DNA of 32,000 nt from an archaeon (GCA_041657425.1 JBBABY010000008.1:17270-49269), one strand, 5' to 3'. Counted from the first letter of the stretch, positions 7,433 through 32,000 are shown. The notes: generated from the letters alone by a model not told the origin. Translations and numbers: made by a program.

Positions 7433-7440
7433 CTGTAACC

Positions 7441-9250: not shown

Positions 9251-9265
9251 TTTTAATTAACCAAA

Positions 9266-12586: not shown

Positions 12587-12982
12587 ATGGTTGAATGGAA
12601 AAAAGTATCAAGAAGAAAAGCAACAGGTGGAATTAATAATGCAGTTAATGCAAAAACAAAATCCTTAAGTGAAAAAGGTGGAAAATTCTCAAAAACAACA
12701 GTCGCTAAAGAAGATAAAATATATAAGATAAGAGGCGTTGGCGGAAACGAGAAAGTAAAGATTTCACACGCACAACACGTTTTAATCTCAGAAGGGAATA
12801 AAACAGTTAAAGCAAAGATAATTGATGTTACAGAAAATAAAGCAAATAAACAATTTGTTAGACAAAAAATAATTACAAAAGGCGCAATCCTTAAAGTTGA
12901 TATCAATGGAAAAGAAGCAAAAGCAAAAGTAACATCAAGACCAGGTCAATCAGGACAAGTTACTGGTGTATTTGTTAAATGA
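12587..12982 (+). CDS. rps8e: 30S ribosomal protein eS8
   Basis: 131 aa. The N-terminus 'WKKVSRRKATGG' and the C-terminus 'ITSRPGQSGQVTGVFV' are typical of archaeal S8e. SD 'agagga' is upstream. Confidence 0.85.
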   Translation: MVEWKKVSRRKATGGINNAVNAKTKSLSEKGGKFSKTTVAKEDKIYKIRGVGGNEKVKISHAQHVLISEGNKTVKAKIIDVTENKANKQFVRQKIITKGAILKVDINGKEAKAKVTSRPGQSGQVTGVFVK

Positions 12983-14692: not shown

Positions 14693-17653
14693 ATGGAAAA
14701 AATTATGAAAAAAGCATATTTATTAAGTGTAATATTTTTAATAGCAATAATTGTACAATCAGTAAGTGCTGTACCGTTCAATATTAACTATTCGTATGTT
14801 AATACTGATTCGCAAAATCAATACTTAAACGTACAATATGGTAATTATTATGATAATGTAAATTTAAGATTAAGATTACAAGCAACAGATGGATACAGTA
14901 ATGTCCCTGTAGTTGTTTCTCCAAAAGTTTATGGAATTTTAGATGGCGGGCAATTAACTTATCTTTATTCTATCCCAACACAGACATATTATGTTTACCC
15001 AACACCACAAGACTATACTTATTCAAATGTTTTCTATTTGAATCCAAGTTATCAAGGTTATGTAGTGAAAGTTTATGCAGAAAGTGCAGGAGTAGTTTAC
15101 AATACCTATTCACAAGCTTATGTTTATCCAGTAAACACAGACCCTTATTTTTATCCAGTAGATGATACAGATAATGAAGAGACAGAAGGTACTACAGACG
15201 CAATAACAGATTGTTCAGATTTTTATCTTTCAGGCGCACATGATATTTATTTTGATGAAGATGAAGAAAGAACTTATAATCTATATATTGAAAATGAAGC
15301 AGGAGACGATCTTGAAGTTTTTGATGTAGATACAAGTAATCCTTCAGAATTAGATATTGATGACATAGAGTATCCTGATACTGTCCCAGAAAGTTCAGTA
15401 AGAACAGTAAGATTAACTCTTCAAGCAGATACTGTTGGAGACGATTATGAATCTACATTTGATGTAACTGTTAGTGCAAAGTACGATAACACTTCTGTTT
15501 GTACAAAGACATATGAAGTTGAATATCATATAAATGATCTAAGTAATGACAACGACAGTAGTTGTTCAGATATTTCTTTTGATGATACTAGTTTTACAAT
15601 CAATGACAATACAGCAACTGTAAAAAACATAGTTATTGAAAATAGTTCAGAAGATTATGATTTTGAAATAGACGATATAACAGTAGAAGATAGAGACGAT
15701 ATCTCTGCAAGGATAGTAGATGAACCAGATGCTGTTGATCAAGAAGATTCTGAAAATATTGAAATAGAGTTTGACCCAGATAATTTAACATACACAGCTA
15801 CAAGATATTTAGATTTAGAAGTTGTTGGTAATCTTGTAAGAGATGGCCACGATGATAAAGAATGTACAAAGAGAGCAAACTTAGCAATTACAATTGTAGA
15901 TAATGGAAATTCTAGTTCAGGAAATACCAATAACAACACAACTCTTTCAAGTTGTAAAAACCTTTCAATTTATGCTGCAAATATTTCTCAAGAAGAAGGA
16001 GAAACAAATAATTATTCAAGAAATAATGGTTTCTTTATAGTCAATAATGCAAATTCAGAGTTTACAATAACAAACTTAACAGTTAATGATAATTCAAGTT
16101 ATGCTAATGTTACAAATACAAATTACAATCCAAGTGTTTATTCAAAGAATTTAAATGCATATTCTTTTGATCTCACAACAAACAATGTAGATATTCAACA
16201 AAACTCAAAAGGAACAGTTTCAGTTTCTGGAAGATTTGCTGATGGTAGAGGGTGTAGTTCGTCAGATATTGGAGTTAAGCAATTTGATATAAGTATTTTT
16301 GAACCAGAGAGTGAATCTTGTGCAGGTATTGAAGTGGAATCAAAGAATGTTCTTTCAGGAAACAATCAAATAAATATTTATAATCACACAAATAAAAAAT
16401 TTTATGTTAGTGATGTTCTTTTCCAAAATAAATATGGTTTAATAGGAAATGTAAACAATAAGCAATTAACTGTTCAAGCAAACAATAGTTCAAGCATGAC
16501 TGTGGGGTTATCAGGAACAGGAAGTCTTGAAATGTTAATTAGCGGTAAGTTTGAAGATGGAAAGAAATGTACTTTCTTACAAACTAATTCTGGTTTTTTA
16601 ACAACAGGGAATACAAATATTCAAGCAAATCTCTCTTCAACTGATTGTGGTTTTGAAGTAATTGCTCCGACAGCAATAACTGTCAATAATAGTCAAGAGA
16701 CAATTACTGCAACTTTTAAAAATCTAACAAGTAAGAATGGGAGAGTTGAAATTACTGGTAATGGCTTAACAACTGATCCAAGTATAATCTTTTTAAGTGG
16801 TTTTGATAATTTTACTCAAAACATAACTCTTTCAAACTTTAGTAATCCAACAAGTGTTTATTATACAGTTAAGTTAAATGATTGTTCAGTAACAAGAACA
16901 TTTACAAATATAGTAAATAATATTTCAGAAACTGAAAGAATTAGTCTTTTAAGTTATCCAACATTAATTAGTCCTACCTCAAGTTATGTTGTTGTTATGG
17001 TAGGCGTTAACAATAGTTTTTCTGTTAACAAAAATGTAACTTTAAAGTTATCTGGTTTTCCAAGTAATTTTCAAACATCTCCAAAGACTACAACTCTTGG
17101 AGCACATGAAACAAAAAATGTGTCTTTAGATTTAATAGTTTCAGAAAATGCAGAAAAGATTGCATACAACGGTTACATTGAGTTATACACTGATAACGCC
17201 CTTTTAAACAAATATCCAATAACAATTAATCTATCTCCTGCAGTTTCTCCAATGACTGCAACAATCAAAACAGAGAAAATAGTAACAGAAGATAGAAGTT
17301 ATAATTTAACTTTAACTTTAAGAAATAATACAAATGTTATTCAAGAAACAGTTGTTGATTTTGGTTTAGATGAAACCTACACAATTGAAGGAGAAAAACA
17401 AGTTAATATTCTCTCTGGCGAAGAAACCGTAAAGAAATATAAGATTGTTTCTTCAGTATTACTAAAAGAAGATAAAGTTATAGATGTAAGAATAAGAGAT
17501 AAAGCAACTGCTCAAGAATTAACAAGTGTAAAAACAACCTTACAATCAGGGGCATCTCCATTAAGTGGTTTTTTGACTCTTGGTAATGCAGGTTTAATTA
17601 TTTTAGGTTTAATTATCCTAGTTGTTTTAGTTATAATATTTAGAAGAAGATAG
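14693..17653 (+). CDS. S-layer-like surface glycoprotein candidate with a PGF-CTERM-like sorting tail
   Basis: 986 aa. The Sec signal peptide is 'MKKAYLLSVIFLIAIIVQSVSA|VPF'. A Tyr-rich N-domain is followed by about five tandem ~110-130-aa Cys-bracketed Ig/CARDB-like domains and two further CARDB-like domains. I hand-counted roughly 30 N-x-S/T sequons. The tripartite C-terminus is described in the next feature. Confidence 0.7.
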   Translation: MEKIMKKAYLLSVIFLIAIIVQSVSAVPFNINYSYVNTDSQNQYLNVQYGNYYDNVNLRLRLQATDGYSNVPVVVSPKVYGILDGGQLTYLYSIPTQTYYVYPTPQDYTYSNVFYLNPSYQGYVVKVYAESAGVVYNTYSQAYVYPVNTDPYFYPVDDTDNEETEGTTDAITDCSDFYLSGAHDIYFDEDEERTYNLYIENEAGDDLEVFDVDTSNPSELDIDDIEYPDTVPESSVRTVRLTLQADTVGDDYESTFDVTVSAKYDNTSVCTKTYEVEYHINDLSNDNDSSCSDISFDDTSFTINDNTATVKNIVIENSSEDYDFEIDDITVEDRDDISARIVDEPDAVDQEDSENIEIEFDPDNLTYTATRYLDLEVVGNLVRDGHDDKECTKRANLAITIVDNGNSSSGNTNNNTTLSSCKNLSIYAANISQEEGETNNYSRNNGFFIVNNANSEFTITNLTVNDNSSYANVTNTNYNPSVYSKNLNAYSFDLTTNNVDIQQNSKGTVSVSGRFADGRGCSSSDIGVKQFDISIFEPESESCAGIEVESKNVLSGNNQINIYNHTNKKFYVSDVLFQNKYGLIGNVNNKQLTVQANNSSSMTVGLSGTGSLEMLISGKFEDGKKCTFLQTNSGFLTTGNTNIQANLSSTDCGFEVIAPTAITVNNSQETITATFKNLTSKNGRVEITGNGLTTDPSIIFLSGFDNFTQNITLSNFSNPTSVYYTVKLNDCSVTRTFTNIVNNISETERISLLSYPTLISPTSSYVVVMVGVNNSFSVNKNVTLKLSGFPSNFQTSPKTTTLGAHETKNVSLDLIVSENAEKIAYNGYIELYTDNALLNKYPITINLSPAVSPMTATIKTEKIVTEDRSYNLTLTLRNNTNVIQETVVDFGLDETYTIEGEKQVNILSGEETVKKYKIVSSVLLKEDKVIDVRIRDKATAQELTSVKTTLQSGASPLSGFLTLGNAGLIILGLIILVVLVIIFRRR
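17537..17650 (+). other. C-terminal tripartite sorting signal (motif + TM helix + basic cluster)
   Basis: 'TLQSGASPLSGF-LTLGNAGLIILGLIILVVLVIIF-RRR'. This has the architecture of PGF-CTERM/PEP-CTERM signals recognised by archaeosortases and exosortases, with SGF in place of PGF. Confidence 0.6.
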
Positions 17654-17748: not shown

Positions 17749-17838
17749 ATGGATAAGAAAGGACAAGCAGCTTTAGAGGTTCTAATTATTTTTGGAGTTT
17801 TAGTTATTGGTACGATTATTTTTGGAGTATTTTATCTT
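17749..17838 (+). other. class III (type IV pilin-like) signal peptide, protein A
   Basis: A short basic N-region ends in 'KG|Q', with Glu at +5 ('QAALE'), followed by a ~22-residue hydrophobic helix. Confidence 0.6.
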
Positions 17839-20800
17839 AATAGTTTAAATAAAAATGTAAATACTGGATCTAAAGTTTCCGGTGTTCTTGATACTTTTGA
17901 AGATCAACTAGGGTATAAAACTAATGATATATTATTAAGTTGTGGAGATGGAACTTGTGATGATGGAGAAACTAGTTCTAATTGTTGCCAAGATTGTGGG
18001 ATTTGTTCTACAAGTTCTTGTGGAGATAGCACTTGTAATTCTGATGAAAATTGTTTAACTTGTGAGGCCGATTGTGGAACTTGTTCAGTACCTACTTTTT
18101 CAAATTTTGTTTTGCAATTAGTTCAACCTGCAAATTCTCCACTAGGTGTTTCTTTTGGAATAAAAGCAATAGTAGAGCAAACTGATTATAATTCTGCAAT
18201 AATTAATCAGGTTGTAATTAAAAAATATGATGTCAGTGAGGGGCAGTTTGTTTCGAATTTTAGTTGTTCTTTTAATGGTGAACAAAACAGTATATTTACA
18301 TATTTAGATCAGTTATATTTAAACGGAAGCAATCAATTAGAAAACGCAATATATTTCTCTTGTCCAGAAGCAGGAGAATATCAATTTGAATTTTATGTTA
18401 AGCCAATTGATTCAGAAGAAAACGTAATAGATTCAGGCGAATTATATAAATCTATAACAAAAACAATTGAAGAAAATAATTTAGCATTTATTTCAACATG
18501 GGATACAAGTAAACCAAGTTATTCAACTAATAAAACAAATAATAATCAAATAATGTTGCCATTAGTAAATTCTGGAACCTATAATTTTACAGTTAATTGG
18601 GGAGATGGAACAACTTCTCAAATTACTTCTTGGGATCAAACAGAAAAAACACACACATATGCAAATCCAGGAATATACACATTAACAATAATAGGAGATA
18701 TTTGGGGATTTGGTTTTTTTAATGATTGGAGTTCTTTTGGAGATGCCAATAAATTAATAGAGATATCTCAATGGGGTTCATTAAGGTTAGGTGATATAGG
18801 AGGACTACATTTTTATAATGCAGGAAATTTAATTATAACTGCACAAGATGTTTTAGATGTAAGCGAAATTACTAATATGAGATCTATGTTTGCAAATTGT
18901 GTATCTTTGACTACTGTTCCAAGAATGAATGAATGGGATGTTTCTAATGTTATTAATATGACGGGTGTATTTGGTAATACTCTTTTTAATGAATATATTG
19001 GGGACTGGGACACATCAAATGTAAATAATATGCAAGGCATGTTTTCTTATGCACGAAATTTTAATCAACCGCTTAATAATTGGAATGTTTCTAAAGTAAA
19101 AAATATGCAAAATATGTTTTCAGGTGCAGGGTTTTTTAATCAGCCAATTGGTAGTTGGAATGTTTCAGATGTAAATAATATGCAAGGCATGTTTTCTTAT
19201 GCACGAGATTTTAATCAGCCGATCGGCAGTTGGGATGTTTCTAATGTAAGGACTATGGAAGACATGTTTCATTCAGCAGATAAGTTTAATCAGCCAATCG
19301 GCAGTTGGGATGTTTCTAATGTAAGGACTATGGAAGGCATGTTTCATTCAGCAGATAAGTTTAATCAGCCAATCGGCAGTTGGGATGTTTCTAATGTAAG
19401 GACTATGGAAGCAATGTTTATGTCATTATATATTATTAATGATTTTAATCAACCGATAGGCAACTGGAATGTATCTAATGTAACAGATATGCATCAAATG
19501 TTTTTAGGCGCAGACTATTTTAATCAACCGATAGGCAACTGGAATGTATCTAATGTTACAAATATGACTGAAATGTTTTCAGAAGCAACGAGTTTTAATC
19601 AACCAATCGGTAGTTGGAATACCTCTAAAGTTACAAATATGTATAAGATGTTTGCTGGTGCAATTTCTTTTAATCAGCCAATCGGCAGTTGGGATGTTTC
19701 GAAAGTCACCAATATGTCCCATATGTTTAATGCTGATGGTTTTTTAAATCACGAAAAATCTTATTTTAATCAGCCAATTGGCAGTTGGAATACATCTAAA
19801 GTAACAGACATGTCTTATATGTTTTCTGAGGCAAAAGATTTTAATCAGCCAATCGGCAGTTGGGACGTTTCTAAGGTTACAAATATGGAAGCAATGTTTT
19901 CTAATGCAAGGTCTTTTGATCAGAATATAAGTGATTGGAATGTTTCAAATGTTACTAATATGGGTAATATGTTTTCGGATGCAAATTCTTTTAATCATCC
20001 AATTGGTAATTGGGATGTTTCAAATGTTACTAATATGGCAGGGATGTTTTCTATAGATTGTTACCAAGATAATCCATCAGAATCTAATTTTAATCAACCA
20101 ATTGATGATTGGGATGTTTCTAATGTTACAGATATGAGTGGGATGTTTTGTAATGCAAAATTTAATCAAACTTTAAATTGGAATACATCAGAGGTAACAA
20201 ATATGAATAAGATGTTTGCATTTCATAAAAATTTTAATCAACCTTTAGATTTTAATACATCTAATGTTACAGATATGAGTTATATGTTTTATAATTCAGA
20301 AAATTTTAATCAGAACTTAGGGAATTGGAATACTTCTAATGTTACAGATATGTCGGGTATGTTTTGGAATGCAAAAGATTTTAATGGACAGATAGGAGAT
20401 TGGAATGTTTCAAATGTAAATAATATGTTTAGAATGTTTGGTGGTGCAACCAGTTTTAATCAAGACATAGGAGATTGGAATACTTCAAATGTAATATATA
20501 TGGGTGGGGCTGTGGATTTAGGTTTGGCAGAAGACGGAATGTTCTATAATGCAACAAACTTCAATCAAGACATAGGTGATTGGAACACATCTAATGTTAT
20601 TGGAATGGGGGGTATGTTTTGGAATGCAGAAAATTTTAATCAAGACATAAATGATTGGGATGTTTCTAATGTAACAGATATGTCTAGAATGTTTTCAGGA
20701 GCTAACGACTTTAATAAAGATATAAGTGGATGGAATGTTTCTAATGTTACAGATATGCACGAAATGTTTAGTGGTGCAACAAGTTTTAATCAAAATATTA

Positions 20801-20892
20801 GTTTTTGGAATGTAAATAAAGTAGATAATTGGGCGGCAATATTTTATAATTGTCCGATAGTAAATTTAAATAAACCATTGAAATTCAGATAA
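17749..20892 (+). CDS. giant pilin-leader surface protein A: class III signal peptide + 2 Cys-rich modules + Cys-pair Ig-like domain + BspA/DUF285 leucine-rich repeat array
   Basis: 1047 aa. The N-terminus is '[30 protein letters not shown]'. Residues 65-112 are '[22 protein letters not shown]' plus '[22 protein letters not shown]'. The preface 'FISTWDT...[13 protein letters not shown]...[15 protein letters not shown]' is typical of BspA/DUF285 proteins. About 24-27 repeats of ~25 aa follow, with consensus '[23 protein letters not shown]'. Confidence 0.8.
19210..19415 (+). repeat. three near-identical in-frame 75-bp tandem units within the DUF285 array
   Basis: Units start at 19210, 19285 and 19360 ('tttaatcagcc[g/a]atcggcagttgggatgtttctaatgtaaggactatggaag..atgtttcattcagcagataag'). 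They differ at only a few bases (gac/ggc/gca at one codon). More near-identical pairs lie at 19021-19070 vs 19171-19220 (48/50 identical) and around 19443 vs 19518. Confidence 0.85.
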
Positions 20893-20925
20893 GCTTTTAA
20901 TTTAAAAAAATAAAAATAAAATAGC

Positions 20926-21195
20926 ATGAACTCAAAAGCACAAATGGAAGTAATAATTTTAATTGGAGTATTTATAGCAGTAATTAGCTACGGCATTTAT
21001 TCTGTTGTTCAAATAAATGATCAACAGGGTGTCGATGCTAATCAACTGGACGCAAATCAAAATAATAATTCTCTTAATCAAATTATTTCTCCAAATAATA
21101 ATACATTATTAACTCCAAATAATAATTCAAATAATCAAGCATCAACACCAACTGGACAAAGTAATGGTTCTAGTTCTTCTTCGCAAGGATCAAAT
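20926..21195 (+). repeat. 5' cassette copy 1 (leader + spacer) shared with the next gene
   Basis: By eye, roughly 90% nucleotide identity with 23731-24000 over about 270 nt. The two sequences are unrelated beyond that point. Confidence 0.8.
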
Positions 21196-23697
21196 CCTGA
21201 AGCTGAAGAAGATAATTCTCCTGGCCACGATTCTTCTAATTCAGATAATGATTTAGCAGATCTTCCAAATGAACTTCCAGAAGGGAATAGTGATTCAATA
21301 GTTTGTGGTAATGGGTTTTGTGAAACAGGAGAATCTTGTTCAAGTTGTCCTAGCGATTGTGGAGCGTGTGTAACTAGTTGTACTGAGTCTCAATTAGGAG
21401 GAATTACTTTTACGCCTAATGGAGGAATTGTCGCTTCTGGAACAACAGTTGCTTTAAGTTATTCTGGGGCTTGTTCAAATTATAATATTTATTACACAAT
21501 AGATAATACAACGCCTACTGCAACCACAGTTTCAAGTTTATATAGCCCATCAACTCCAATAATAATTACTCAAAATAAAAATATAACTGCAAGAGTTTCT
21601 ACTCTTGATAGTTCTGGAAATAGAATATATGGAGTAGTTAGTAAACAAGAATATAAGATAAACACAACTATCGTACCACCTGAAATAAATTCACTTGCGG
21701 AGTTTACAAAATTCACAGAAATTTCTGGTAATTCAAATTTTGGAGAAGCAGTAGATATTGTTTCAAAGCCAACAGATTATTCTGCAGGCATTAAAGAATT
21801 TGTAGTATTATATTTCACACATAGAGGTAGTACCAGTGGACCATTTAGATTAGTTTCTTTTAAGTATAATCTTTATTCTCAAACATTAATAGATAAAAAA
21901 ATTGTAACTTTAAATAATTTAGGAAGTTTATCTGGTTACGCAGATAAGAGTTTGTATTATTTATCCGCAGATAAATATATAGTTGTTGGAACAAATAAAA
22001 TCATTAAAATAGATTTTAGTAAAGCAAATCCAGACGTTCCAGTTTGGGAATATAATTTTGCAACAATCATTGGAGAAGATCCTGTTTTTTATAACGGATT
22101 TGCAGGAATTACTACAAATCTAGATGTAGAAGGAAATTTTATATTTACAGGAAGATTATACCCAATAACTCCTGAAGTATTTTTAATAAAAATGAATGTT
22201 AATTCAGATACTGCTCCAACAGATATTTGGAGTTCTACAAATCCTACAAGTTGTGGCAATCCAAGTCCAGGTTATACTCATAGTTGCTATTCTACATTTG
22301 TAAAATCGCAGTTTGTAGTAAGTAATAATAATTTGATTTATTATTATTTAAATAGTAATGGATTAAGAATTATGAGTTTAAATAAATTAACCGGAGAGAT
22401 TATTTGGGATGTTAATAAATCTTACAATGCATCTAGTTTAAATAATTCACTAACTTTACTTGATAATGGAGATTTATTTTTAATTGATATAAATCAAAAT
22501 AAATATGTTTATTCAAAGTTAAGTAAAACAGACGGAAGCACCATTTGGCAAAATAGTGTGTTATTATCTTCAACTAATCCAGTAATGCCAATTTTAAAAA
22601 CTAGTGGAGATAATATGTTTTTATTTGATGGTTATAGTAGTTCAGATTATAGAGCAATAAAGAAATATTATAATATAAATTTAAATAATGGTACCGCCAA
22701 TGAAGTGGCATTTCCTGATGGTTTAACCATATTTACAGGAAATAGTCCTTATTCCAGAACAAAGCCAATTATTGAATTTAATCCAAATACAAATGATGTA
22801 TTGTTATTACACCAAGGATCACATCTTTCTCTTTATATTGATATTTACCGCCCCTTTACAAATATAATAAAAATAGATAAATCAGGAATTCCATATATGT
22901 TAGCTTGGGCGCAAAATGGCACTAAATATTTTACTCAATTTGGAAATTTATCTTATTTTAGAGAATCATTAATTTCTAATAATGCTCTTTATATCGCAGG
23001 TTATTCTTTTCCATATGAGAATGCAAATACAAATATATTTTTATCAAAGCAAAATTTGGTAGATTCTAAAACTCCAGTAGTTGATTATTATAAAACCATA
23101 AATTTAGCAAGTTTAAATTATTCATTAAATAAAGATTTATATTGGACAGGAGAAGAATCTTCTGCATATCCTGTTCCAAATATGCATTTTGAGTTATTAA
23201 ATGATGGATATGGAATATTGTTTGTTCCAAATCTTATGAATAAAGATACAAATGCAGAAACTGCTTTACTTACAGTAATAAATTTAAATAATGAGGATAA
23301 TAAAAATCAATTTACATTAACAGCTCCAGAAACAATAACTCCGGTTCCATGCACAGATGCTCCAGAATGGGCTAATTATTATTGTATAACTGCAAATTTA
23401 AAGTTATCAGAATCTGCAAATATTGGCATGTTTGTTTCTGATAAAAATTTATCTGTTTTAACAAGTGGAAATTTTATACGCATAAGTGAAAATAGTTCTC
23501 CATCTGATGTTGCTAGACAATGGAATTTAAATGAGATTACTTCTGGAGATTCTATTCAAAAGATAAGAACGAACTACACTGGTGCATATTATCTAAATAT
23601 TTCTTCCTATTCTTCAGCAGATAGCGGAGTAGATTATTATAATCCAAAGATTGGAAAAAGACAATTACATAGAATTTATGTTAATGCAGTTAATTAA
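20926..23697 (+). CDS. giant pilin-leader surface protein B: class III-like signal + N/Q/S-rich spacer + Cys-rich module + chitobiase-C-like domain + ~670-aa uncharacterised (beta-propeller-like?) region
   Basis: 923 aa. The N-terminus is 'MNSKAQMEVIILIGVFIAVISYGIYSV', followed by a low-complexity Asn/Gln/Ser spacer. 'CGNGFCETGESCSSCPSDCGAC' spans residues 127-148. 'ITFTPNGG...NIYYTIDNTTPT...ITARV' is CHB_HEX_C-like. The remainder has recurring '..IW..N'-type strands but no motif I can name. Confidence 0.6.
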   Translation: MNSKAQMEVIILIGVFIAVISYGIYSVVQINDQQGVDANQLDANQNNNSLNQIISPNNNTLLTPNNNSNNQASTPTGQSNGSSSSSQGSNPEAEEDNSPGHDSSNSDNDLADLPNELPEGNSDSIVCGNGFCETGESCSSCPSDCGACVTSCTESQLGGITFTPNGGIVASGTTVALSYSGACSNYNIYYTIDNTTPTATTVSSLYSPSTPIIITQNKNITARVSTLDSSGNRIYGVVSKQEYKINTTIVPPEINSLAEFTKFTEISGNSNFGEAVDIVSKPTDYSAGIKEFVVLYFTHRGSTSGPFRLVSFKYNLYSQTLIDKKIVTLNNLGSLSGYADKSLYYLSADKYIVVGTNKIIKIDFSKANPDVPVWEYNFATIIGEDPVFYNGFAGITTNLDVEGNFIFTGRLYPITPEVFLIKMNVNSDTAPTDIWSSTNPTSCGNPSPGYTHSCYSTFVKSQFVVSNNNLIYYYLNSNGLRIMSLNKLTGEIIWDVNKSYNASSLNNSLTLLDNGDLFLIDINQNKYVYSKLSKTDGSTIWQNSVLLSSTNPVMPILKTSGDNMFLFDGYSSSDYRAIKKYYNINLNNGTANEVAFPDGLTIFTGNSPYSRTKPIIEFNPNTNDVLLLHQGSHLSLYIDIYRPFTNIIKIDKSGIPYMLAWAQNGTKYFTQFGNLSYFRESLISNNALYIAGYSFPYENANTNIFLSKQNLVDSKTPVVDYYKTINLASLNYSLNKDLYWTGEESSAYPVPNMHFELLNDGYGILFVPNLMNKDTNAETALLTVINLNNEDNKNQFTLTAPETITPVPCTDAPEWANYYCITANLKLSESANIGMFVSDKNLSVLTSGNFIRISENSSPSDVARQWNLNEITSGDSIQKIRTNYTGAYYLNISSYSSADSGVDYYNPKIGKRQLHRIYVNAVN

Positions 23698-23730
23698 TCG
23701 TAATAAAAATAATTAAAAAAGAGAAAAAAT

Positions 23731-24000
23731 ATGAATTCAAAAGCACAAATGGAAGTAATAATTTTAATTGTAGTATTTATAGCAGTAATTAGCTATGGTA
23801 TTTATTCTGTTGTTCAAATAAATGATCAACAGGGTGCTGATACTAATCAACTGGACGTAAATCAAAATAATAATTCGTTAACTCAAATTATTTCCCCAAA
23901 TAATAACACATTATTAAATCAAAATAATAATTCAAATAATCAAGCACCAATACCAACAGGACAAAGTAACGGTTCTAATTCTTCTTCACAAGGATCAAAT
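23731..24000 (+). repeat. 5' cassette copy 2 (leader + spacer)
   Basis: Direct repeat of 20926-21195, 2805 bp downstream, at the same position relative to the start codon. Confidence 0.8.
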
Positions 24001-26472
24001 CAAGAAAATGATAATGAAGAAGATAATTCTGCTTCTCAGAATAATTCTTCTCAATCAAATGCTTCTGAAGAAACAAATGTAGATGCCGAAGATGATTATG
24101 TAGATATAAATGATGATGACAGCGGCGCAATTGAAATTCCAAGTGATTATGAAGAAGAAGAGGAAGATGCTGATTCTAATTATACTGTGCCAGTTCCTCC
24201 ACAACCACCAATCAATCCACCTACCATTCCAACAGGTGTATTTACAAATATTTATGCTTCAGCACCAAACACAAGTTATAATACTTCTGAACCATTTACT
24301 TTAACAATTTCAACAAATGTTCCTGGAGTGTATCTTACTCAGATCTCTATTTTTAAAAATGAAGAATACACCACTAATTGTCAACCTAATCTGCCAGGCA
24401 GTACTAGCCCTACTGATGGGCAATATTATTCGTTTGGCGGTCAAACCAATTCTTCTAATCAGTTTATTGTTCCTTTTAATAGTGGTTGTACAGAAGTTGG
24501 ACAATATAGTTTTGTAGTTTATGCAAGTTATGGAGGAGTAAGTAAAAATACAACTTTTACTTTAAATATAAGTACTTTTGCTCCAGTAAATGGAGAGATT
24601 ATGTATTTAGAACATTTAATGTACATTAATACAAACTCAGAAACAAGAGCAGGCAGTTATAAATTAATGAGAGATTTAGATTTTCAAGATTCAAGTAATT
24701 ATCTTAATCCATTAAATAAAATTGCTTGGACAACTGGTAGTGGTTGGGATCCAATTGGTTATATACACGATAATTCAGTAGTCGGATTTACAGGAAATTT
24801 TAATGGTAATAATAAAAAAATAAAAAATTTATATATTAATAAACCAACTACAGATAATTTAGGATTATTTGGAGTAATTAAACCAAATGCAAATATAAGT
24901 AATTTAATATTAGAAAATGTTAATATTACTGGCCAAAATTATGTGTCTGGATTAGTTTCAGATAACGGAGGAAATATTTCTAATTGTCAAGTATCTGGGT
25001 TAGTTAATTCTCCATCTATTAATACTTCAAATTATGTTATTGGAGGATTAGCGGGATTGAATTATGGAACAATAACTAATTGTATTTTTAGTGGAAATGT
25101 AAGTGGTGTTGATGATGTTGGAGGGCTAGCAGGAAAAAATTTTGTAGGTGTTTCAGATATTGGTGGTAAAATTTACAATAGTAGTTCCTCAGGAAGAGTA
25201 TTTGGAATAAATTCTAGTACTGGCGGTTTAGTAGGAGATAATAGTTATGGTTTAATCAAAGATAGTAATTCAACATCCACAGTTAATGGTAAAAATAATG
25301 TTGGAGGGCTTTCAGGATTTATGGGCAAGTTTTCTGTGGCTGCAGGAAAAATAGAAAATAGTTATTTCCTTGGAGACGTAAATGGTTTTAATTATGTGGG
25401 TGGTCTTGTAGGATATAATGAACGCGGAGATATCAACAATAGTTATTTCCAAGGAGTGATTATTGGAAATATTGGTGTTGGTGGAATAGCTGGCTATAAT
25501 GGCAAAGGAACAATTTCCGCAAGTTATTCAACAAGAGACATTAAAGGAGTTGATAATGTAGGAGGACTTGTTGGGGAAAGTAATAATCAAAGTATAATTT
25601 CTTCAAGTTATTCAACAGGAAATATAATTGGTCAAGATAAGGTTGGCGGAGTAATTGGTATTAATAAAGGAACAATTTCCTCTAGTTATTCCACAGGCTC
25701 TGTTTCTGGTCGTTCTTTTGCAGGAGGTTTAGTTGGACGTAATTGGGAAGGAACAATTTCTTCAAGTTATGCTACTGGAAAAACAACAGGTAGTGATAAT
25801 GTTGGAGGTTTTGCAGGTGGTACATGGTATGGTACAATTTCTTCAAGCTATGCGACAGGAGAGGTTTCCGGATCTTCTCCGGTGGGCGGATTTATTGGAA
25901 ATAATGCATATGGAACTATATCTTTAAGTTCTGCAATAGGAGCTGTTATAGGATACTCTTTGGTTGGAGGATTTGCGGGTACAAATTACGGATTAATTTC
26001 TTCGAGCTATTCAAAAGGGACCGTTTCTGGTTCGTGGTCTTCTGTTGGTGGATTTATTGGAGAAAATACTGTTGGGTCAATTACAAATTGTTATTCAATT
26101 GGAAATATTGTTAGAATTCAGGAAGCTCCAGGAACTGCGTTTTCTGGATTTGTGGGTTGGAGTGGCGGACAATATTCTGGAGGGATAGTTAATTGTTATT
26201 CAATTGGAAAAGTAATTTATGAAGGTTCAACAAATCCAACAAATGCAGGATTTTCTCAAAATAATTTAAGTCAAACAAGTTCTGGTAATTTTTGGGACAC
26301 CAGTAATTCTCAACAATCAACAAGTCCATCAAATGCTATTGGCAAAATAACCTCTGATATGAAAATTCAAAGTACATTTACAGATAGCGGTTGGAATTTC
26401 ACAAATATTTGGGTAATTAATTCAAATGTAAATAATGGGTATCCACATTTACAAAATAATCTTCCAAATTAA
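23731..26472 (+). CDS. giant pilin-leader surface protein C: class III-like signal + N/Q/S and acidic spacer + Cys-pair Ig-like domain + GLUG-motif beta-helix repeats
   Basis: 913 aa. The first ~90 aa are nearly identical to protein B. An acidic 'DDYVDINDDD...EEEEEDAD' stretch and a 'PVPPQPPINPPTIP' linker follow. From 'YKLMRDLDF' onward there are at least 12 units of ~28-30 aa of the type 'VGGLxGxNxGxIxxSYxTGxVxG' (GLUG motif). The C-terminal 'FWDTSNSQQSTS...ITSDMK...GWNFTNIWVI...NGYPHLQ' is typical of GLUG proteins. Confidence 0.7.
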   Translation: MNSKAQMEVIILIVVFIAVISYGIYSVVQINDQQGADTNQLDVNQNNNSLTQIISPNNNTLLNQNNNSNNQAPIPTGQSNGSNSSSQGSNQENDNEEDNSASQNNSSQSNASEETNVDAEDDYVDINDDDSGAIEIPSDYEEEEEDADSNYTVPVPPQPPINPPTIPTGVFTNIYASAPNTSYNTSEPFTLTISTNVPGVYLTQISIFKNEEYTTNCQPNLPGSTSPTDGQYYSFGGQTNSSNQFIVPFNSGCTEVGQYSFVVYASYGGVSKNTTFTLNISTFAPVNGEIMYLEHLMYINTNSETRAGSYKLMRDLDFQDSSNYLNPLNKIAWTTGSGWDPIGYIHDNSVVGFTGNFNGNNKKIKNLYINKPTTDNLGLFGVIKPNANISNLILENVNITGQNYVSGLVSDNGGNISNCQVSGLVNSPSINTSNYVIGGLAGLNYGTITNCIFSGNVSGVDDVGGLAGKNFVGVSDIGGKIYNSSSSGRVFGINSSTGGLVGDNSYGLIKDSNSTSTVNGKNNVGGLSGFMGKFSVAAGKIENSYFLGDVNGFNYVGGLVGYNERGDINNSYFQGVIIGNIGVGGIAGYNGKGTISASYSTRDIKGVDNVGGLVGESNNQSIISSSYSTGNIIGQDKVGGVIGINKGTISSSYSTGSVSGRSFAGGLVGRNWEGTISSSYATGKTTGSDNVGGFAGGTWYGTISSSYATGEVSGSSPVGGFIGNNAYGTISLSSAIGAVIGYSLVGGFAGTNYGLISSSYSKGTVSGSWSSVGGFIGENTVGSITNCYSIGNIVRIQEAPGTAFSGFVGWSGGQYSGGIVNCYSIGKVIYEGSTNPTNAGFSQNNLSQTSSGNFWDTSNSQQSTSPSNAIGKITSDMKIQSTFTDSGWNFTNIWVINSNVNNGYPHLQNNLPN

Positions 26473-26563
26473 TAAATTAAAATATAAAAGAGAAGAAATT
26501 TAATTAATAGTAATATTTATTAATTAATTATAGACGTATATTAATAGCACTATAAAAATTAAG

Positions 26564-29500
26564 ATGAGATTTATGAAAACAAAAGGGCAAGTTTCTATAG
26601 AGTTATTAATTATTTTAGGAATAGTAGTAATTGGGGCAGTTTTGTTTGGAGTATATTATTTAAATAATATACGCAGTAACATTAAATTGTCAGATGACTC
26701 TTATAATTATGATAATCAATTTACTCCTGGAATTGTAATTCCTACTTGTTATGATGGAATTCAAAATGGAAATGAATCTGGAATAGATTGCGGAGATATT
26801 TGTCTAGTTTGTTCATCAACAGATTGTGCAAATACAGTAACCATTTTTTCCCCAATAGGAGGTACCTATTTTTCTCCACAATCTATTCGTTTAAGTTATA
26901 ATACAATAAATTGTCCTGGTGCACACATTTATTATACCACTGATGGAACAACTCCAACTTCTAATTTACAACCATATAACGCACCAATAATTTTAAATGT
27001 TGGACAAACAACAATCAAAGCAAAAGTTATTGCAATAGACGGTGCAGGAACAGAAATTTCAGGAATTCCTAATGAGCAAACTTATAATGTAATTACACCT
27101 TCTCTAGGTTGTGATAATCCAATTGGGACTGTTACATTTTCTCCAGCAGGTGGGACTTATTCAACTACACAATATGTTACATTAAATTATAATGATCCAA
27201 ATTGTTCTGATTATAAAATATATTATACAATAGATGGTAATGAACCAACTAAAACTTCTAATTTATATTTCTCTGATTCTTTATATTCTTCAATAAGAGT
27301 TTTAGAAACAACAACAATAAAAGCAAAAGTTTTTGCAAAAAATTCATCTGGGCAAGATGTAAATGGCGATACCAATACTCAAATTTATAATATTTCTGTT
27401 TTAAAGATGCCAATTGCAACTCCAAATTCTGGTATTTATCCTGCAACTCAAACAATTGTATTATCTTTAGATTCATTAACGCCTTTAGGAGCAATAATTA
27501 GATATACAACTGATGGTTCAAAAGTAAATGATTTATCATCACAATATGTTTTACCAATTCCTATTTCTGATAGACTTGTAATAAATGCAAAAACCTATAA
27601 ATCAGGAATGGATCCAAGTGCACAAGCATCATTTAATTATTTAATAACTCCAGAGGATCCAATTACTTTTAGTAATCTTAAAATAGATTATATGACTCCA
27701 TATTCTGAGATTGATAATCCGTTTACTGTTTCTGTTATTGCAAAAACAGAAGTTCCATTTGTAAATATTAATAGTGTAGAAATTAAAAAAAATGGATGGG
27801 TTACAAATTCTTGTTCTTTTTTAGGAATTAATAATGGCAGAACTCAAATTCCAATAGAGTGTACTGGTGGACATTGTACTGATTTAGGAGATTTATCAGA
27901 AACGTATAGTGGAGAAGAATACTTTAATAATTTTTTATTCAGTTGTAGCGAATCCGGAAATTATAGTTTTAAATTTACAGGCACATTAACTCAAGCAGGT
28001 TCAACTATTACACACGATACTAATTTAGGATATATTGAGATTAAACCAGTAATCTATTATTTATCGCCTCCTAAAGCAACTCCAATTTCTGGATTCTATC
28101 CTTTAGGAACAATTATTTCATTGTATTTAGATCCGCCAATACCAGATGCAATAATTAGATATACAACTAATGGTTCAGAAGTTACTGAGACTTCTCCTGC
28201 ATACAATAGGCAAATCACTCTTAATCAAGAAACAGTATTAAAAGCAAGAGCATATAAAGTTGGGACCACTCCAAGCTCACAAGCAGTATATAATTATTTT
28301 ATTTCAGAATCTATGACCCCAAGATTTGGGAATTTAGAAATTACAAATTTAGCTTCGCAAGCAACAATTAGTTTTCCATTTAATGTAGAAGTTACTGCAC
28401 AAGCAAATCTTCCTATTGTTTATTTAGATCAAGTAGAAATCAAGAAAAATGGAAATTTAACAAACGCTTGTCAGTTTTTAGGAATCACTAATGAACCAGA
28501 AGAATATAGAGTTTGTTCTAACGGTATTTGTGAAGATTTAGGATATTTAACAATAACTGGAGGATTTGAAGAATATTATAACACTTTTAAATTTAAATGC
28601 GATGAAACAGGAACATATACTTTTAGATTTAGAGGAGAATTAGGAACAACAATCAAAATTACTCCTCCAGAAAATATTACAATTCCAGAACCTCCAGAAT
28701 ATGATTGTTCTTTAAACCCAGTAATTCCTGGACAGATTTGGTGTTTAGAAGATTTAGATGCTATACGCAATAATCTTTTAGGTACATATATTTTAATGAG
28801 AGATTTAGATTTTGAAAACAATGCACACTATCGTAATCCTACTCTGAATAAACCATTATGGACAACCGGAGAAGGCTGGGTTCCATTAGGTACAATTTTA
28901 GGAACTAGATTTAGTGGAGTTTTCGAAGGAAATAATAAAAAAATAAGCCATTTATATATTAATCGTCCAAACTTTGATTTTTATAATAGAAATCAAGGAT
29001 TATTTGGGAATATCCAACCAAGTTTCCAAAATCCTATTGTTCAAATTAGGAATCTAGGATTAGAAGATGTTAATATTACGGGTGCCGATTATATTGGAGC
29101 TTTAGCAGGAGATGTTATTGATAAATTACAGTATCTTAATAATTCTAATGTAATAATTAATAATTGTTATTCTTCTGGCGTGGTTAAAAATTCTAATAGT
29201 TCAGCTGGCGGAATTGGAGGGTTAATTGGTAGACATTTGGCATTAGGACCTATGGAGAATTGTCATTCATCAGTAGATGTTAATTCTATTGGCGATGTTT
29301 ATTCAGGTGGACTTATAGGTGTTATTCCATCAGATATTTGGGTTACAAATTATGACACAATTATTGATCATTGTTATTCTACGGGGAATGTATTTGGAGA
29401 AGAATTGATTGGTGGGTTAATTGGTCATTTAGGATATAATTCAATTGTAAGGAAATCATATTCAACAGGAAATCTTTCTGGAAATATGATTATTGGTGGA

Positions 29501-30019
29501 TTAGTTGCAGGATTAAATGATGGAATTATTGAAGAAAGTTATTCTACCAGTAATATAATTGCAACATCACCATTTTCTGGTTCCACTTATAATGTAGGAG
29601 GACTAGTGTCTGCTGCATCTGGGCATTCTGTTATATCAAATAGTTATTCAACAGGAGATTTAATTATAGCTAACCCTCATACATCTAATTCAATTGGAGG
29701 ATTTATAGGGAGTTCTGCTTCTGGTTGGGTAAATATAGAAAATAGTTATTCAACGGGGTCTATAACCTATTTGAATTTACCAAGTCCTACGAATAAAGGA
29801 TTTTCAGGACATGATTTCACAGGTAGTTTAAATTTTTGGGATACTCAAACATCTGGACAATCCACAAGCCCAGGAAGTCCTAGTGTAGCAATTATTGGAA
29901 AGACAACATCAGAAATGAAAACACCATCAACTTTTAGTGATTGGAATTCTTCTGTGTGGGCAATTAATTCTGGTATAAATAATGGGTATCCTTATTTACA
30001 AAATAATCTACCACAATAA
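26564..30019 (+). CDS. giant pilin-leader surface protein D: class III signal peptide + Cys-rich module + 4 chitobiase-C-like domains + 2 Cys-pair Ig-like domains + GLUG beta-helix
   Basis: 1151 aa. 'M(RFM)KTKGQVSIELLIILGIVVIGAVLFGVYYL' is a textbook Class_IIIsignal/DUF361-type N-terminus, and an alternative start at ATG 26573 gives 'MKTKGQ'. 'CYDGIQNGNESGIDCGDICLVC' spans residues 62-83. Repeated '..IYYTTDGTTPT..'/'IRYTTDGS' domains follow. The GLUG region runs from 'YILMRDLDF' to 'NGYPYLQNNLPQ'. Confidence 0.7.
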   Translation: MRFMKTKGQVSIELLIILGIVVIGAVLFGVYYLNNIRSNIKLSDDSYNYDNQFTPGIVIPTCYDGIQNGNESGIDCGDICLVCSSTDCANTVTIFSPIGGTYFSPQSIRLSYNTINCPGAHIYYTTDGTTPTSNLQPYNAPIILNVGQTTIKAKVIAIDGAGTEISGIPNEQTYNVITPSLGCDNPIGTVTFSPAGGTYSTTQYVTLNYNDPNCSDYKIYYTIDGNEPTKTSNLYFSDSLYSSIRVLETTTIKAKVFAKNSSGQDVNGDTNTQIYNISVLKMPIATPNSGIYPATQTIVLSLDSLTPLGAIIRYTTDGSKVNDLSSQYVLPIPISDRLVINAKTYKSGMDPSAQASFNYLITPEDPITFSNLKIDYMTPYSEIDNPFTVSVIAKTEVPFVNINSVEIKKNGWVTNSCSFLGINNGRTQIPIECTGGHCTDLGDLSETYSGEEYFNNFLFSCSESGNYSFKFTGTLTQAGSTITHDTNLGYIEIKPVIYYLSPPKATPISGFYPLGTIISLYLDPPIPDAIIRYTTNGSEVTETSPAYNRQITLNQETVLKARAYKVGTTPSSQAVYNYFISESMTPRFGNLEITNLASQATISFPFNVEVTAQANLPIVYLDQVEIKKNGNLTNACQFLGITNEPEEYRVCSNGICEDLGYLTITGGFEEYYNTFKFKCDETGTYTFRFRGELGTTIKITPPENITIPEPPEYDCSLNPVIPGQIWCLEDLDAIRNNLLGTYILMRDLDFENNAHYRNPTLNKPLWTTGEGWVPLGTILGTRFSGVFEGNNKKISHLYINRPNFDFYNRNQGLFGNIQPSFQNPIVQIRNLGLEDVNITGADYIGALAGDVIDKLQYLNNSNVIINNCYSSGVVKNSNSSAGGIGGLIGRHLALGPMENCHSSVDVNSIGDVYSGGLIGVIPSDIWVTNYDTIIDHCYSTGNVFGEELIGGLIGHLGYNSIVRKSYSTGNLSGNMIIGGLVAGLNDGIIEESYSTSNIIATSPFSGSTYNVGGLVSAASGHSVISNSYSTGDLIIANPHTSNSIGGFIGSSASGWVNIENSYSTGSITYLNLPSPTNKGFSGHDFTGSLNFWDTQTSGQSTSPGSPSVAIIGKTTSEMKTPSTFSDWNSSVWAINSGINNGYPYLQNNLPQ

Positions 30020-30089: not shown

Positions 30090-32000
30090 ATGAATCCAAA
30101 AATAATTATTGTTTTATTCTTAATACTGCTTTTTTCAAATGTATTTGCAGATTTTAATTTCTCTAAAGATAATTCATTAAATCTTCTTGAAAATAAAGAT
30201 AATTTAGAAGTATCAAATCAAAATAATTATCAAGATGTTTTTTATCCCCCAGAAGAAGTATTACTAAAGGAAATGGGAATAACCACTGAACAATATAAAG
30301 AACTGCTTGTAAAAAACGCACCAGTTACAAGAAATTCAAGTGTTTCTAACATCTGGGGAACAACGCCATTATCCGGGACAATACACATTCCAGTTCTTCT
30401 AGTTCAATTCACAGACAAGATGCCAACTCAAACACAAAGTGCAATAAATGAAGCATTTAATAGTTCTAATTATTTAAGTGGCAGTGGAATAAGTGTAAGT
30501 AAATACTATACAAAGCAATCCTATGGAGATTTAAATATTATTTTTGATGTTTACAATTGGACAACTATGCCAAACACGTTTTCTTATTATTCTCAAAATA
30601 GTAATAGTAATTTTTATCTAATAATTGATGCAATGAATACTTTCAATCCAAGTGTAAACTTTGCACAATATGATAATGATAATGATGGTAGACTTGATGG
30701 AATAGTTATTGTTTATCCTGACCAAGGAAAAATTAGTCCAAATGGTATTTGGGCGCAAACAAGAATATTAAAACAATATAATAATAATCCAGTTGATGGA
30801 AAATATCTAGGAAACGCGGCGTTAATTCCATCATTAGGTGCTAGAAGTATTACTCCAAGTCAATTTGAAATACCTGTAACTACTCATGAATTTGCACACG
30901 TTTTAGGAATACCAGATTTGTATGCAAATGGTTCAAGTGGTCAATTAAATGCAGGGCCAGTTTATCAAATGACAATGATGATATTTCAAGAATATACAAG
31001 TCCAACAAATCATTGTCTTAATAAGCCAATCAATCTTGATGTTTGGTCAAGATATTTTTTCGGTTGGGTTAATCCAATTGAATTAACAATAGACAGCAAT
31101 AAAGAAATAAGTCTAAGAAGTATAAACGATTATCCAGACGCAGTTATTTTAAGAAATAGCAATATGGGTCCAAGGGAATTTTTCATAATAGAGAATAGAT
31201 ACAGAAACACAGCAGACCCTAATAACTTAGATAATTGTATGTTTCTAAATGGTTCCACAATAAGAGGCGGTTTTGCAATTTATCATGTTGATGAAAACAA
31301 AATTGAATTTGACTATCCAAACAATTGGGTAAATTGGGATAGAGATAATAATTATTTTGATTATACAACTTGGCCAGGAATAATCTACAGAGAAAATATG
31401 ATTGATTCTACTTATCCAACAAATTTATCAATATATTCTAATGATTTATATTTTAACGTAGTATCAAATGGTTGTGATTCATTTAGATATTTTGATAGTA
31501 ATAAACGAATCTGTGCAACATATTATTATGCAGTTGATGATTCAACAACACGAAGTTATAATGGAACATTAGATCCATTAATTAAATTTGAAGCAATCTC
31601 TACAGCTAATTTACCAATAATGACTGCTAAGATGCTTGTTGGAGAAGAAACAATAATTCCTGCAGCAACACCTATTGAAGGAACATATACTTCTGCACAA
31701 TCAATAGTTTTAAGTTCGTTAACTCCTGGCGCAACAATTTATTATACCACTAATGGAACTACACCCACAACCTCTTCTACAATTTATGTTGGACCGATTA
31801 CTGCACCATTAGGAGCAGTAACAACAATAAAAGCAATTGCTAAAAAAAATAATTTTTATGTTAGTGATGTAATGACAAGTGTTTACACAATTTATGGGGC
31901 AGTAGCAACCCCAACATCAAGCCAACCATCAGGCAATGTTGCTTACAATTCTCAAGTGATCTTAAGCACAACCACAACTGGCGCGACAATTAGGTATACT
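30090..32000 (+). CDS. secreted M6-family (immune inhibitor A-like) zinc metalloprotease with C-terminal chitobiase-C-like domains; 3' end outside the window
   Basis: This gene is not in the ORF track. Hand translation from ATG 30090 gives 637 codons with no stop, in frame to base 32000. The signal peptide is 'MNPKIIIVLFLILLFSNVFA|DF'. 'IPVLLVQFTD', 'DNDNDGRLDGIVIVY' and the zinc site 'THEFAHVLGIPDLY' (HEFAH at 30885-30899) match the M6 domain. From about 31654 come 'GTYTSAQSIVLSS..ATIYYTTNGTTPT' and a second 'ATIRYT' domain. Confidence 0.75.
   Translation, partial: MNPKIIIVLFLILLFSNVFADFNFSKDNSLNLLENKDNLEVSNQNNYQDVFYPPEEVLLKEMGITTEQYKELLVKNAPVTRNSSVSNIWGTTPLSGTIHIPVLLVQFTDKMPTQTQSAINEAFNSSNYLSGSGISVSKYYTKQSYGDLNIIFDVYNWTTMPNTFSYYSQNSNSNFYLIIDAMNTFNPSVNFAQYDNDNDGRLDGIVIVYPDQGKISPNGIWAQTRILKQYNNNPVDGKYLGNAALIPSLGARSITPSQFEIPVTTHEFAHVLGIPDLYANGSSGQLNAGPVYQMTMMIFQEYTSPTNHCLNKPINLDVWSRYFFGWVNPIELTIDSNKEISLRSINDYPDAVILRNSNMGPREFFIIENRYRNTADPNNLDNCMFLNGSTIRGGFAIYHVDENKIEFDYPNNWVNWDRDNNYFDYTTWPGIIYRENMIDSTYPTNLSIYSNDLYFNVVSNGCDSFRYFDSNKRICATYYYAVDDSTTRSYNGTLDPLIKFEAISTANLPIMTAKMLVGEETIIPAATPIEGTYTSAQSIVLSSLTPGATIYYTTNGTTPTTSSTIYVGPITAPLGAVTTIKAIAKKNNFYVSDVMTSVYTIYGAVATPTSSQPSGNVAYNSQVILSTTTTGATIRYT

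Follow-up and report, generated by a model that had tools for sequence, protein, structure and literature searches.

The window analysed here, meaning the whole stretch of 32,000 nucleotides (nt) at GCA_041657425.1, JBBABY010000008.1:17270-49269, is AT-rich (G+C content about 0.25-0.36) and carries nearly all of its genes on the + strand. Judged by synteny, its host is an archaeon of the Iainarchaeota (DPANN; kingdom Nanobdellati): every named locus among the 21 syntenic ones belongs to Candidatus Iainarchaeum, Ca. 'ainarchaeum', Diapherotrites or Ca. Forterrea multitransposorum. Gene identities were taken from Pfam matches of the open reading frames (ORFs) in the window and from the annotation of an identical ENA contig. 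Six large surface-protein genes stand in a row, and encode a 986-residue S-layer-like protein, four proteins that we call A, B, C and D, and an M6-like metalloprotease. Our subject is the four proteins A-D, each of about 1000 amino acids (aa), and in particular the short N-terminal segments with which they begin. Their features are as follows; positions are counted from the first letter of the window, Ig stands for immunoglobulin, and a slash within a sequence marks the predicted cleavage site.

17749..20892, + strand: protein A, 1047 aa; class III leader MDKKG/Q, alpha1 helix, Cys-rich spacer, Ig-like beta-sandwich, DUF285/PARCEL repeats
17749..17838, + strand: leader of A (aa 1-5, MDKKG) and predicted alpha1 helix (aa 6-30), with Lys at -2, Gly at -1, Gln at +1 and Glu at +5
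20926..23697, + strand: protein B, 923 aa; variant leader MNSKA/QME, N/Q/S-rich spacer of ~90 aa, Cys-rich motif (CGNGFCETGESCSSCPSDCGAC), one CHB_HEX_C domain, orphan all-beta cargo of 680 aa
23731..26472, + strand: protein C, 913 aa; B-type variant leader and spacer, Ig-like domain, GLUG-motif repeats, conserved C-terminus
26564..30019, + strand: protein D, 1151 aa (or 1148 aa as called by NCBI, with the ATG at 26573); class III leader (MRF)MKTKG/QVSIE, alpha1 helix, short Cys-rich spacer, four CHB_HEX_C/Fn3_assoc domains, two Ig-like domains, GLUG region
26573..26662, + strand: leader of D (MKTKG) and alpha1 helix (QVSIELLIILGIVVIGAVLFGVYYL), with the QxSxE signature of EppA/DUF361 substrates

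The initial annotation of this DNA had placed four consecutive ORFs of ~1000 aa here, and its coordinates proved exact. The genes are separated by gaps of 33, 33 and 91 nt, all on the + strand. A scan for hydrophobic 19-mers detects a single cluster in each protein, at the N-terminus, with 19-mers starting at residues 1-16 only; the same scan found no C-terminal hydrophobic segment or anchor in A-D, as the annotation had said. Nor do any of the four carry an archaeosortase-type tripartite C-terminal sorting signal (motif, transmembrane helix, basic tail), unlike the 986-aa protein. The repeat array of A consists of ~21 repeats of 25 aa (DUF285 at 758 bits, together with PARCEL repeats), encoded by 75-nt DNA repeats, and protein C matches Glug at 128 bits (Pfam). 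Protein D is identical to P0001 (MFA5746166.1); the accession numbers run on consecutively through its neighbours, whose locus tags begin with WCX82_. A collection of 15 billion proteins contains B, C and D but not the exact sequence of A, perhaps because A was called there from another start codon or because the assemblies differ within the 75-nt repeats.

Are the N-termini of A and D true class III signal peptides? In A, B, C and D alike a basic leader, with Lys at -2 and Gly or Ala at -1, precedes the hydrophobic stretch, and Gln stands at +1. The processing sites of A (KG/QAALE) and D (KG/QVSIE) match those of EppA substrates, with Gln at +1 and Glu at +5 in both. The EppA sites of Methanococcus maripaludis read KGQV, KGQI, KGQL and RAQI; Gln is required at +1, and Glu is typical at +5 (PMC4371748). 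In archaeal class III signals generally, positions -2, -1 and +1 are the most important, a basic residue at -2 being the archaeal hallmark (PMC3387779). Measured against PF04021 (Class_IIIsignal; cut-off 23.7 bits), the N-terminus of D scores 26.3 bits alone and 20.7 bits within the full protein, and that of A 19.3 bits (E 1e-3); both proteins also give weak matches to TIGR04205, a class III signal model. A leader profile built on 146 independent leaders, from which the window sequences were left out, scores A at 66.3 bits and D at 64.0 bits, while the other stop-to-stop ORFs of at least 30 aa in the window reach 6.3 bits or less. We conclude from these sequence comparisons that the leaders of A and D are bona fide EppA/DUF361-type class III signals fused to adhesin-like cargo, as the initial annotation had proposed.

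The basic n-region and the lack of a C-terminal anchor would also suit ordinary class I signal peptides cut by signal peptidase I, in which case the proteins would be released or held non-covalently at the S-layer. We regard this as very improbable. In the Sec signals of the flanking proteins (MKKAYLLSVIFLIAIIVQSVSA/VP and MNPKIIIVLFLILLFSNVFA/DF) the hydrophobic stretch has about 12-15 residues, but in A-D it has 23-25 and is not followed by an AxA-type c-region; the conserved site precedes this stretch instead of following it. Since the flanking surface proteins have Sec signals and A-D do not, the organism appears to use distinct targeting routes within one locus.

How widespread is this leader, and what does it carry? 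A profile spanning 36 positions, derived from the leaders of A and D, was compared exhaustively, with HMMER, to 1.84 billion (1.84e9) representative proteins (E<=1e-3). The resulting family comprises 158 clusters. Among the best 150 of these nearly all matches begin within the first 25 residues, and 146 contain the motif [KR][GA]Q...E. Over these 146 leaders K is found at -2 in 135, G or A at -1 in all 146, Q at +1 in all 146, S or A at +3 in 140 and E at +5 in 144. Conservation continues beyond the site, with L at +7 in 124, G at +16 in 131 and Y at +24 in 123. The family can thus be searched for by the signature [KR][GA]/Q-x-[SA]-x-E followed by a conserved helix. A word-index search with an alignment of 14 leader sequences returned only one match (E 0.056); this near-empty result reflects a query that is too short and too hydrophobic.

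These counts bear on a second alternative, in which A-D are uncleaved type II membrane anchors that tether stalked adhesins, the KGQ..E motif being an inheritance from their history. The single N-terminal hydrophobic segment, at 23-25 residues, is indeed of membrane-spanning length. Yet the conservation past the cleavage site is more than a plain membrane anchor would need: K-2, G/A-1, Q+1, E+5, G+16 and Y+24 are near-invariant over 146 leaders that sit on unrelated cargo. The same leader, moreover, is found on PF04021-matching proteins of 54-150 aa, and the neighbours at the locus use Sec signals or a C-terminal anchor, so that targeting routes are distinguished. We consider this alternative unlikely; further evidence in its favour comes from B, C and their relatives and is given below.

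The members of the family differ widely in size. The best 150 range from 54 to 2123 aa: 21 have at most 100 aa, 32 have 101-200, 37 have 201-500, 51 have 501-1000 and 9 exceed 1000, so that 60 are of 500 aa or more. Small proteins with the leader of A and D had been named by the initial annotation as a point to check; members of 54-200 aa do exist, and some of them lie in identical syntenic slots. Within the best 150, PF04021 is matched by 37 of the 53 members of up to 200 aa, and one member has been named 'UPF0333 family' by JGI. In the 60 members of at least 500 aa the Pfam cargo is varied: GLUG occurs in 26, CHB_HEX_C_1 in 22, Peptidase_M26_N in 10, DUF285 and Big_7 in 4 each, RCC1 and Flg_new_2 in 3 each, and PT-HINT in 1.

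What occupies the corresponding genomic positions in relatives of the window organism? Across related Iainarchaeota the slots hold no leader-bearing gene, one or two of them, or versions of pilin size (73-150 aa). Where the window organism has its four giants A-D, directly after the S-layer-like gene, close relatives (loci L004 and L016) have a 550-aa member (KKG/QVAIE) and an 878-aa GLUG member (KKA/QVALE). In L017 this slot contains two members of 140-150 aa, each made of a leader and one CHB_HEX_C domain. In more distant Iainarchaeota, such as L027 (the complete Ca. Forterrea), L021 and L023, there is no leader gene after the S-layer-like gene, and ribosomal protein genes come directly next. 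A second locus, L040, belongs to the same metagenome-assembled genome (MAG) as the window, as judged from the prefix WCX82_ and from the shared sample ERZ27247350, in which contig L001 matches positions 1-9256 of the window at 100% identity. Here members of 1118 aa (NKG/QVSIE) and 443 aa (RKG/QGSLE) lie between the gene for a KaiC-like ATPase and scpA. Together with the four proteins of the array, they bring the leader-bearing proteins encoded in this genome to at least six. In four related contigs, L044-L047, the slot between the KaiC-like gene and scpA is occupied by a single 142-aa member, and in L043 a 73-aa PF04021-matching member lies between members of 538 and 390 aa. Identical genomic positions alternate between pilin-sized and giant versions. 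The claim that a pilin leader has been fused to adhesin cargo is borne out by this distribution, one leader being carried by pilin-sized and by giant proteins, sometimes in the same slot, and we take the fusion to be well supported by the comparative sequence data.

The gene order of the second slot is itself conserved (DNA ligase, KaiC-like, the leader gene, ScpA, ScpB, Lon), with the KaiC-domain gene divergent. The KaiC-domain ATPase has 236 aa (L040, 1865-2575) and counterparts in L044-L047. It was considered as an ArlH/FlaH-like pilus component and rejected, its ArlH/FlaH scores being far below cut-off; at 135 bits it is also below the cut-off of KaiC_arch_3, and it is best described as a generic KaiC-domain protein.

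Leaders and cargo have not stayed together in descent. Proteins B and C share a 5' module:

20912..21206 (B) and 23717-24011 (C), + strand: shared 5' module of 295 nt, 89% identical, repeat family D5

This module includes the 14 nt ahead of the ATG, the leader and the spacer (about 94 codons). In agreement with it, B and C are 91% identical in their first 56 aa by BLASTP and show no similarity beyond, their cargo being unrelated. Conversely, C and D differ in their leaders but have homologous cargo (34-35% identity, E 3e-46), that of C corresponding to the C-terminal half of D. The A-type leader recurs nearly unchanged on P0008 (1102 aa, with D-like cargo and Fib_succ_major) and on P0127 (894 aa), and the bacterial homologues of the GLUG cargo, P0066 and P0072, have Sec signals and the C-terminal domain of the type IX secretion system (T9SS). 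Shared modules of this kind, combined with mismatched leaders and cargo, indicate that leaders and cargo have been exchanged by recombination. On this comparative evidence the A-D array exemplifies a gene family that evolves fast and recombines.

Is the array also a switch? The initial annotation had likened it to a cassette system, and as a regulated switch that idea finds no support. The four genes are complete, each with its own start. In a search of the window for the inverted repeats of a shufflon or invertible switch, only imperfect AT-rich pairs attributable to chance were found, and no recombinase is encoded in the window.

The leaders of B and C require separate treatment. Their N-terminus, MNSKA/QMEVIILIGVFIAVISYGIYSVV, has Lys at -2, Ala at -1, Gln at +1 and a hydrophobic stretch of 23 residues, and its Glu is at +3 (QMEVI), not at +5. 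When the N-termini were scanned neither protein matched PF04021, and the leader-profile scores are 6.3 bits for B (E 0.14 among about 360 ORFs) and 2.1 bits for C. Compared by eye with the consensus, the B/C helix comes into register at Glu, Gly+11 and Gly+21 if two residues are deleted after the Gln and one more further on; this suggests that the B/C leader is a diverged derivative of the A/D leader. The initial annotation had called it a related variant, which is right as regards the K-A/Q site and the hydrophobic helix, but the Glu has moved to +3, conserved glycines have gone and both profiles fail to recognise the sequence. The failure against the leader profiles, and the long low-complexity spacers that follow the helix in B and C, favour the uncleaved type II anchor. 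We predict that B and C may be cleaved, but that they are more probably stalked adhesins anchored by their helix.

What structure follows the leader? AlphaFold, given an alignment of three sequences, models residues 1-240 of A as a helix (3-34), a region of low confidence (32-112; predicted local distance difference test, pLDDT, <50) that corresponds to the spacer and the Cys-rich region, and an Ig-like beta-sandwich (117-239; pLDDT about 87-92). Foldseek searches with this N-terminal model returned generic Ig-like folds only (E>1e-3) and no pilin in the PDB. The model thus agrees with the expectation of a pilin-like N-terminus in its long helix and departs from it in having no pilin head, and the pilin module of A is best modelled as a helix-only handle. 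The major Epd pilin likewise has no globular domain (bioRxiv 10.64898/2026.04.22.720090). Since Flp/Epd-type major pilins are headless, the missing head does not exclude a pilin function.

The Cys-rich region contains a mini-motif, CG(D/N)GxCxxxExxxxCxxDCGxC, which follows the spacer and is present three times in A (17938-18087), once in B (21286-21405) and in altered form in D (about 26740-26830). It occurs in most of the large members of the family and matches no Pfam family; P0285 and P0287 are built almost wholly of its repeats.

Of 5.8 billion clustered proteins only two are homologous to the cargo of B (residues 246-923), with 40-42% identity. One of these is cut short at its N-terminus; the second, P0284, begins with a hydrophobic anchor that lacks the leader motif, and continues with a long low-complexity spacer. 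The existence of P0284 means that helix anchoring without pilin biology occurs among these proteins, and it too favours the uncleaved type II anchor. In L038 the gene for the leader-bearing P0003 is immediately preceded by part of a B-like gene. The fold of the B cargo is poorly predicted (pLDDT 51.5), and Foldseek returns only beta-propellers, with TM-scores of at most 0.22; a weak BamB match in NCBIfam is consistent with a beta-propeller, and these results together give only a hint of that fold. Taken as a group, the cargo families of the array and its relatives (DUF285/PARCEL, GLUG with M26_N-like, CHB_HEX_C Ig-like and beta-propeller-like) point to a probable role in adhesion or in the binding of glycans or proteins.

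If A and D are pilin-like, where is the machine that would assemble them? The initial annotation had noted that the window lacks one, and rightly so: neither the ORFs of the window nor the Pfam-annotated loci include a match to a prepilin peptidase, to a TadC/FlaJ platform protein or to an ATPase of the T2SSE type. A regular-expression search of L001-L033 for Walker-A and GxGD peptidase motifs gave one match, 'GAKDVK' in an 819-aa ORF of L033, which was judged spurious. The lack of pilus machinery in the window and in the related loci examined is also what an uncleaved membrane anchor would lead one to expect. Many archaeal pilin genes, such as pilA1-6 of Haloferax, are unlinked to their machinery (PMC4371748), and system 1 (Epd-type) clusters have been reported in DPANN (bioRxiv 10.64898/2026.04.22.720090). 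The Forterrea genome paper makes no mention of pili.

The explanation that we favour, and hold to be moderately probable, sees in A and D modular type IV pilin-like proteins whose helix serves as the handle for grafted adhesins. In the proposed construction, a basic leader of 5-8 residues and a [KR][GA]/Q site would be followed by a helix of ~25 residues with Glu at +5, then by a flexible Cys-rich spacer and 0.9-1.1 thousand residues (kaa) of adhesin-type modules, with no globular head in between. The proteins would be inserted co-translationally with the N-terminus inside the cell, and an aspartyl prepilin peptidase would cut after the Gly or Ala so as to expose an N-terminal Gln. In the pilins of M. 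maripaludis the N-terminal Gln is converted to pyroglutamate. The helix with its Glu+5 would then act as a universal 'handle' for a type IV filament machine whose genes lie elsewhere. Given their bulk, A and D would be low-abundance or minor subunits, or tip subunits, as has been argued for the modular pilins of bacteria (PMC8179133). Alternatively the adhesin may stay fixed to the membrane by its helix, which is the arrangement proposed for bindosome proteins. Display of A and D on a pilus is, we believe, plausible.

Several observations weigh against this explanation. Some 1000 aa of cargo would be hard to fit sterically into a filament. The globular head that pilins carry on alpha1 is absent from the model of A, and the AlphaFold alignments were only three sequences deep. 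Proteins B and C fail all profile tests, and P0284 places a motif-less anchor on a B-type cargo. With no machinery genes in the window or the related loci, the genetic link to a filament machine is missing. Finally, metagenomic gene calls can be truncated, as where a representative of 191 aa clusters with a member of 757 aa; the share of truly small members is on this account overestimated.

A third alternative accepts the cleavage and dispenses with the filament. In it the proteins would be cut by a prepilin peptidase and yet form no extended pilus, remaining membrane-anchored or gathering in a short pseudopilus-like raft, as for the sugar-binding proteins of Sulfolobus. Non-pilin cargo with a class III signal is an established finding in archaea (PMC3387779; bioRxiv 10.64898/2026.04.22.720090), and the bulky cargo, the want of a pilin head and the separation of the genes from pilus machinery would all be compatible with such a bindosome-like arrangement. 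We nevertheless judge it distinctly unlikely. The cargo is of the adhesin type and not substrate-binding, no ABC transporter gene lies in the window, and both the Glu at +5 and the helix face are conserved in the 146 leaders. In bacterial type IV pili these two features are tied to the packing of subunits, and not to cleavage alone. A bindosome-like state also overlaps with the modular pilin explanation, which holds membrane retention as its fallback.

How might modular pilins of this kind serve a DPANN archaeon? A more specific proposal, which we put forward tentatively and consider doubtful, is that in the Iainarchaeota the helix-only handle lets one filament machine show any of a set of rapidly recombining giant adhesins at its tip, by which these archaea of small genome would recognise hosts or substrates. 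The Glu+3 forms, B and C, would on this proposal be non-polymerising, and either retained in the membrane or filament-capping. The repertoire on which it would draw amounts to at least six adhesins in this genome and more than 150 clusters in the lineage.

The closest parallels are to be found among the Epd/EppA substrates (DUF361/UPF0333/PF04021, 'system 1' of the archaeal type IV filaments), with which A and D share the basic leader, the [KR][GA]/Q site, Ser or Ala at +3, Glu at +5 and the helix. Epd pilins, however, are small and are encoded beside EppA and EpdJKL, whereas A and D bear adhesin modules of 0.9-1.1 kaa, a figure that rises to 2.1 kaa elsewhere in the family, have no machinery nearby and belong to a DPANN host. 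A second parallel is provided by the modular type IV pilins of bacteria, of which more than 1,200 are known in 264 architectures, the largest having 860 aa; in Streptococcus sanguinis, for instance, PilB bears a vWA module and PilC a lectin module (PMC8179133). These resemble A and D in the use of a class III signal and helix as the carrier of diverse grafted modules, for which display at the tip is predicted. They differ in having a G/F or G/M...E5 leader (IPR012902) and in keeping the globular pilin module; A and D are archaeal, helix-only and larger. The Sulfolobus bindosome and other FlaFind-positive non-pilins, including the 'relatively large pilins' of Haloferax pilB4C4, combine a class III signal with large cargo as A and D do, and several such cargo proteins are thought to share one base machinery. 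Bindosome-type proteins, by contrast, have PibD sites without Gln+1 and Glu+5 and substrate-binding cargo encoded beside ABC transporters, where A and D have arrays of adhesin repeats.

The use of alternative binding modules on a single machine, which was the substance of the cassette idea, has counterparts in the minor-pilin 'Tip' complexes of the Kil (Tad) system of Myxococcus (PMC12075869) and in the variants of the PilV adhesin on the pili of IncI-type plasmids (PMC9045228). Both have been demonstrated genetically, whereas A-D are known as complete paralogous genes, without inverted repeats or a recombinase. The variation of PilV is generated by a shufflon under the control of a recombinase.

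In the literature searched we found no description of a helix-only, EppA-type handle on adhesins of 0.5-2 kaa in DPANN. The modular pilin design has hitherto been described mainly in bacteria, and A and D would extend it to archaea and to far larger cargo. This is of consequence because the attachment of DPANN archaea to hosts and surfaces is largely obscure, their pilins often being reported as 'not found'. The signature described above ties a pilin-type targeting signal to a large and fast-evolving repertoire of probable adhesins, and makes the family of A and D a set of candidates for cleavage assays, metaproteomics and cryo-electron tomography. Should these proteins turn out to be merely membrane-anchored, the leader family would still define a major class of surface proteins in the phylum.

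The remaining genes of the window, which contains no tRNA genes, are these.

Ahead of the surface-protein genes: NYN-domain protein; MinD/ParA-like ATPase; Sm-like protein; isochorismatase-family protein; enolase
Ahead of the surface-protein genes: ribosomal proteins L1, L10, P1 and S8e
9325-10899 and 11525-12193: Hef-like helicase and separate ERCC4/HhH nuclease, so that Hef is split over two genes
12979..13536, + strand: exosortase/archaeosortase-family protein, 185 aa (TIGR04178, 36.1 bits against a cut-off of 23; the NCBI name agrees)
14693..17653, + strand: S-layer-like protein, 986 aa, with a Sec signal peptide and a C-terminal transmembrane anchor '...PLSGF..TM..RRR'
30090..32000, + strand: M6-like metalloprotease (HEFAHVLG), with a Sec signal and then CHB_HEX_C domains; continues past the end of the window

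Between the helicase and nuclease genes there are two short ORFs without annotation, one of 89 and one of 93 aa; the latter resembles a RelE/ParE-like toxin by eye and has no significant Pfam match. A 128-aa coiled-coil protein, unusually well conserved and also without a significant Pfam match, is encoded on the minus strand at 14124-14507. A genome scan anchored on it found homologues at 51-86% identity in the 21 syntenic loci, in which its gene is always just upstream of the S-layer-like gene and on the opposite strand.

The 986-aa S-layer-like protein is conserved and syntenic across the Iainarchaeota, and the leader-bearing array lies directly downstream of its gene. Its C-terminus, …SGASPLSGFLTLGNAGLIILGLIILVVLVIIFRRR, resembles a sorting signal of the PGF-CTERM type in which SGF replaces PGF. 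The exosortase/archaeosortase-family gene is 1.1 kilobases upstream, and relatives are arranged alike, with tails such as PLSAFF…FRKR. These sequence features make the two a probable sortase-substrate pair in the Iainarchaeota.

Downstream of the array, the M6-like protease has homologues that adjoin leader-bearing proteins in at least seven related loci. Their positions include the following.

L004: 9959-12898
L007: 2977-5370 and 8297-10024
L009: 3169 onward
L010: 417-3323
L012: 611 onward
L034: 963 onward

The M6 protease and a leader-bearing protein may form a functional pair, in which the protease would, for example, process adhesins or host surfaces. In L007 the pair of a leader-GLUG protein and an M6 protease has been duplicated in tandem.

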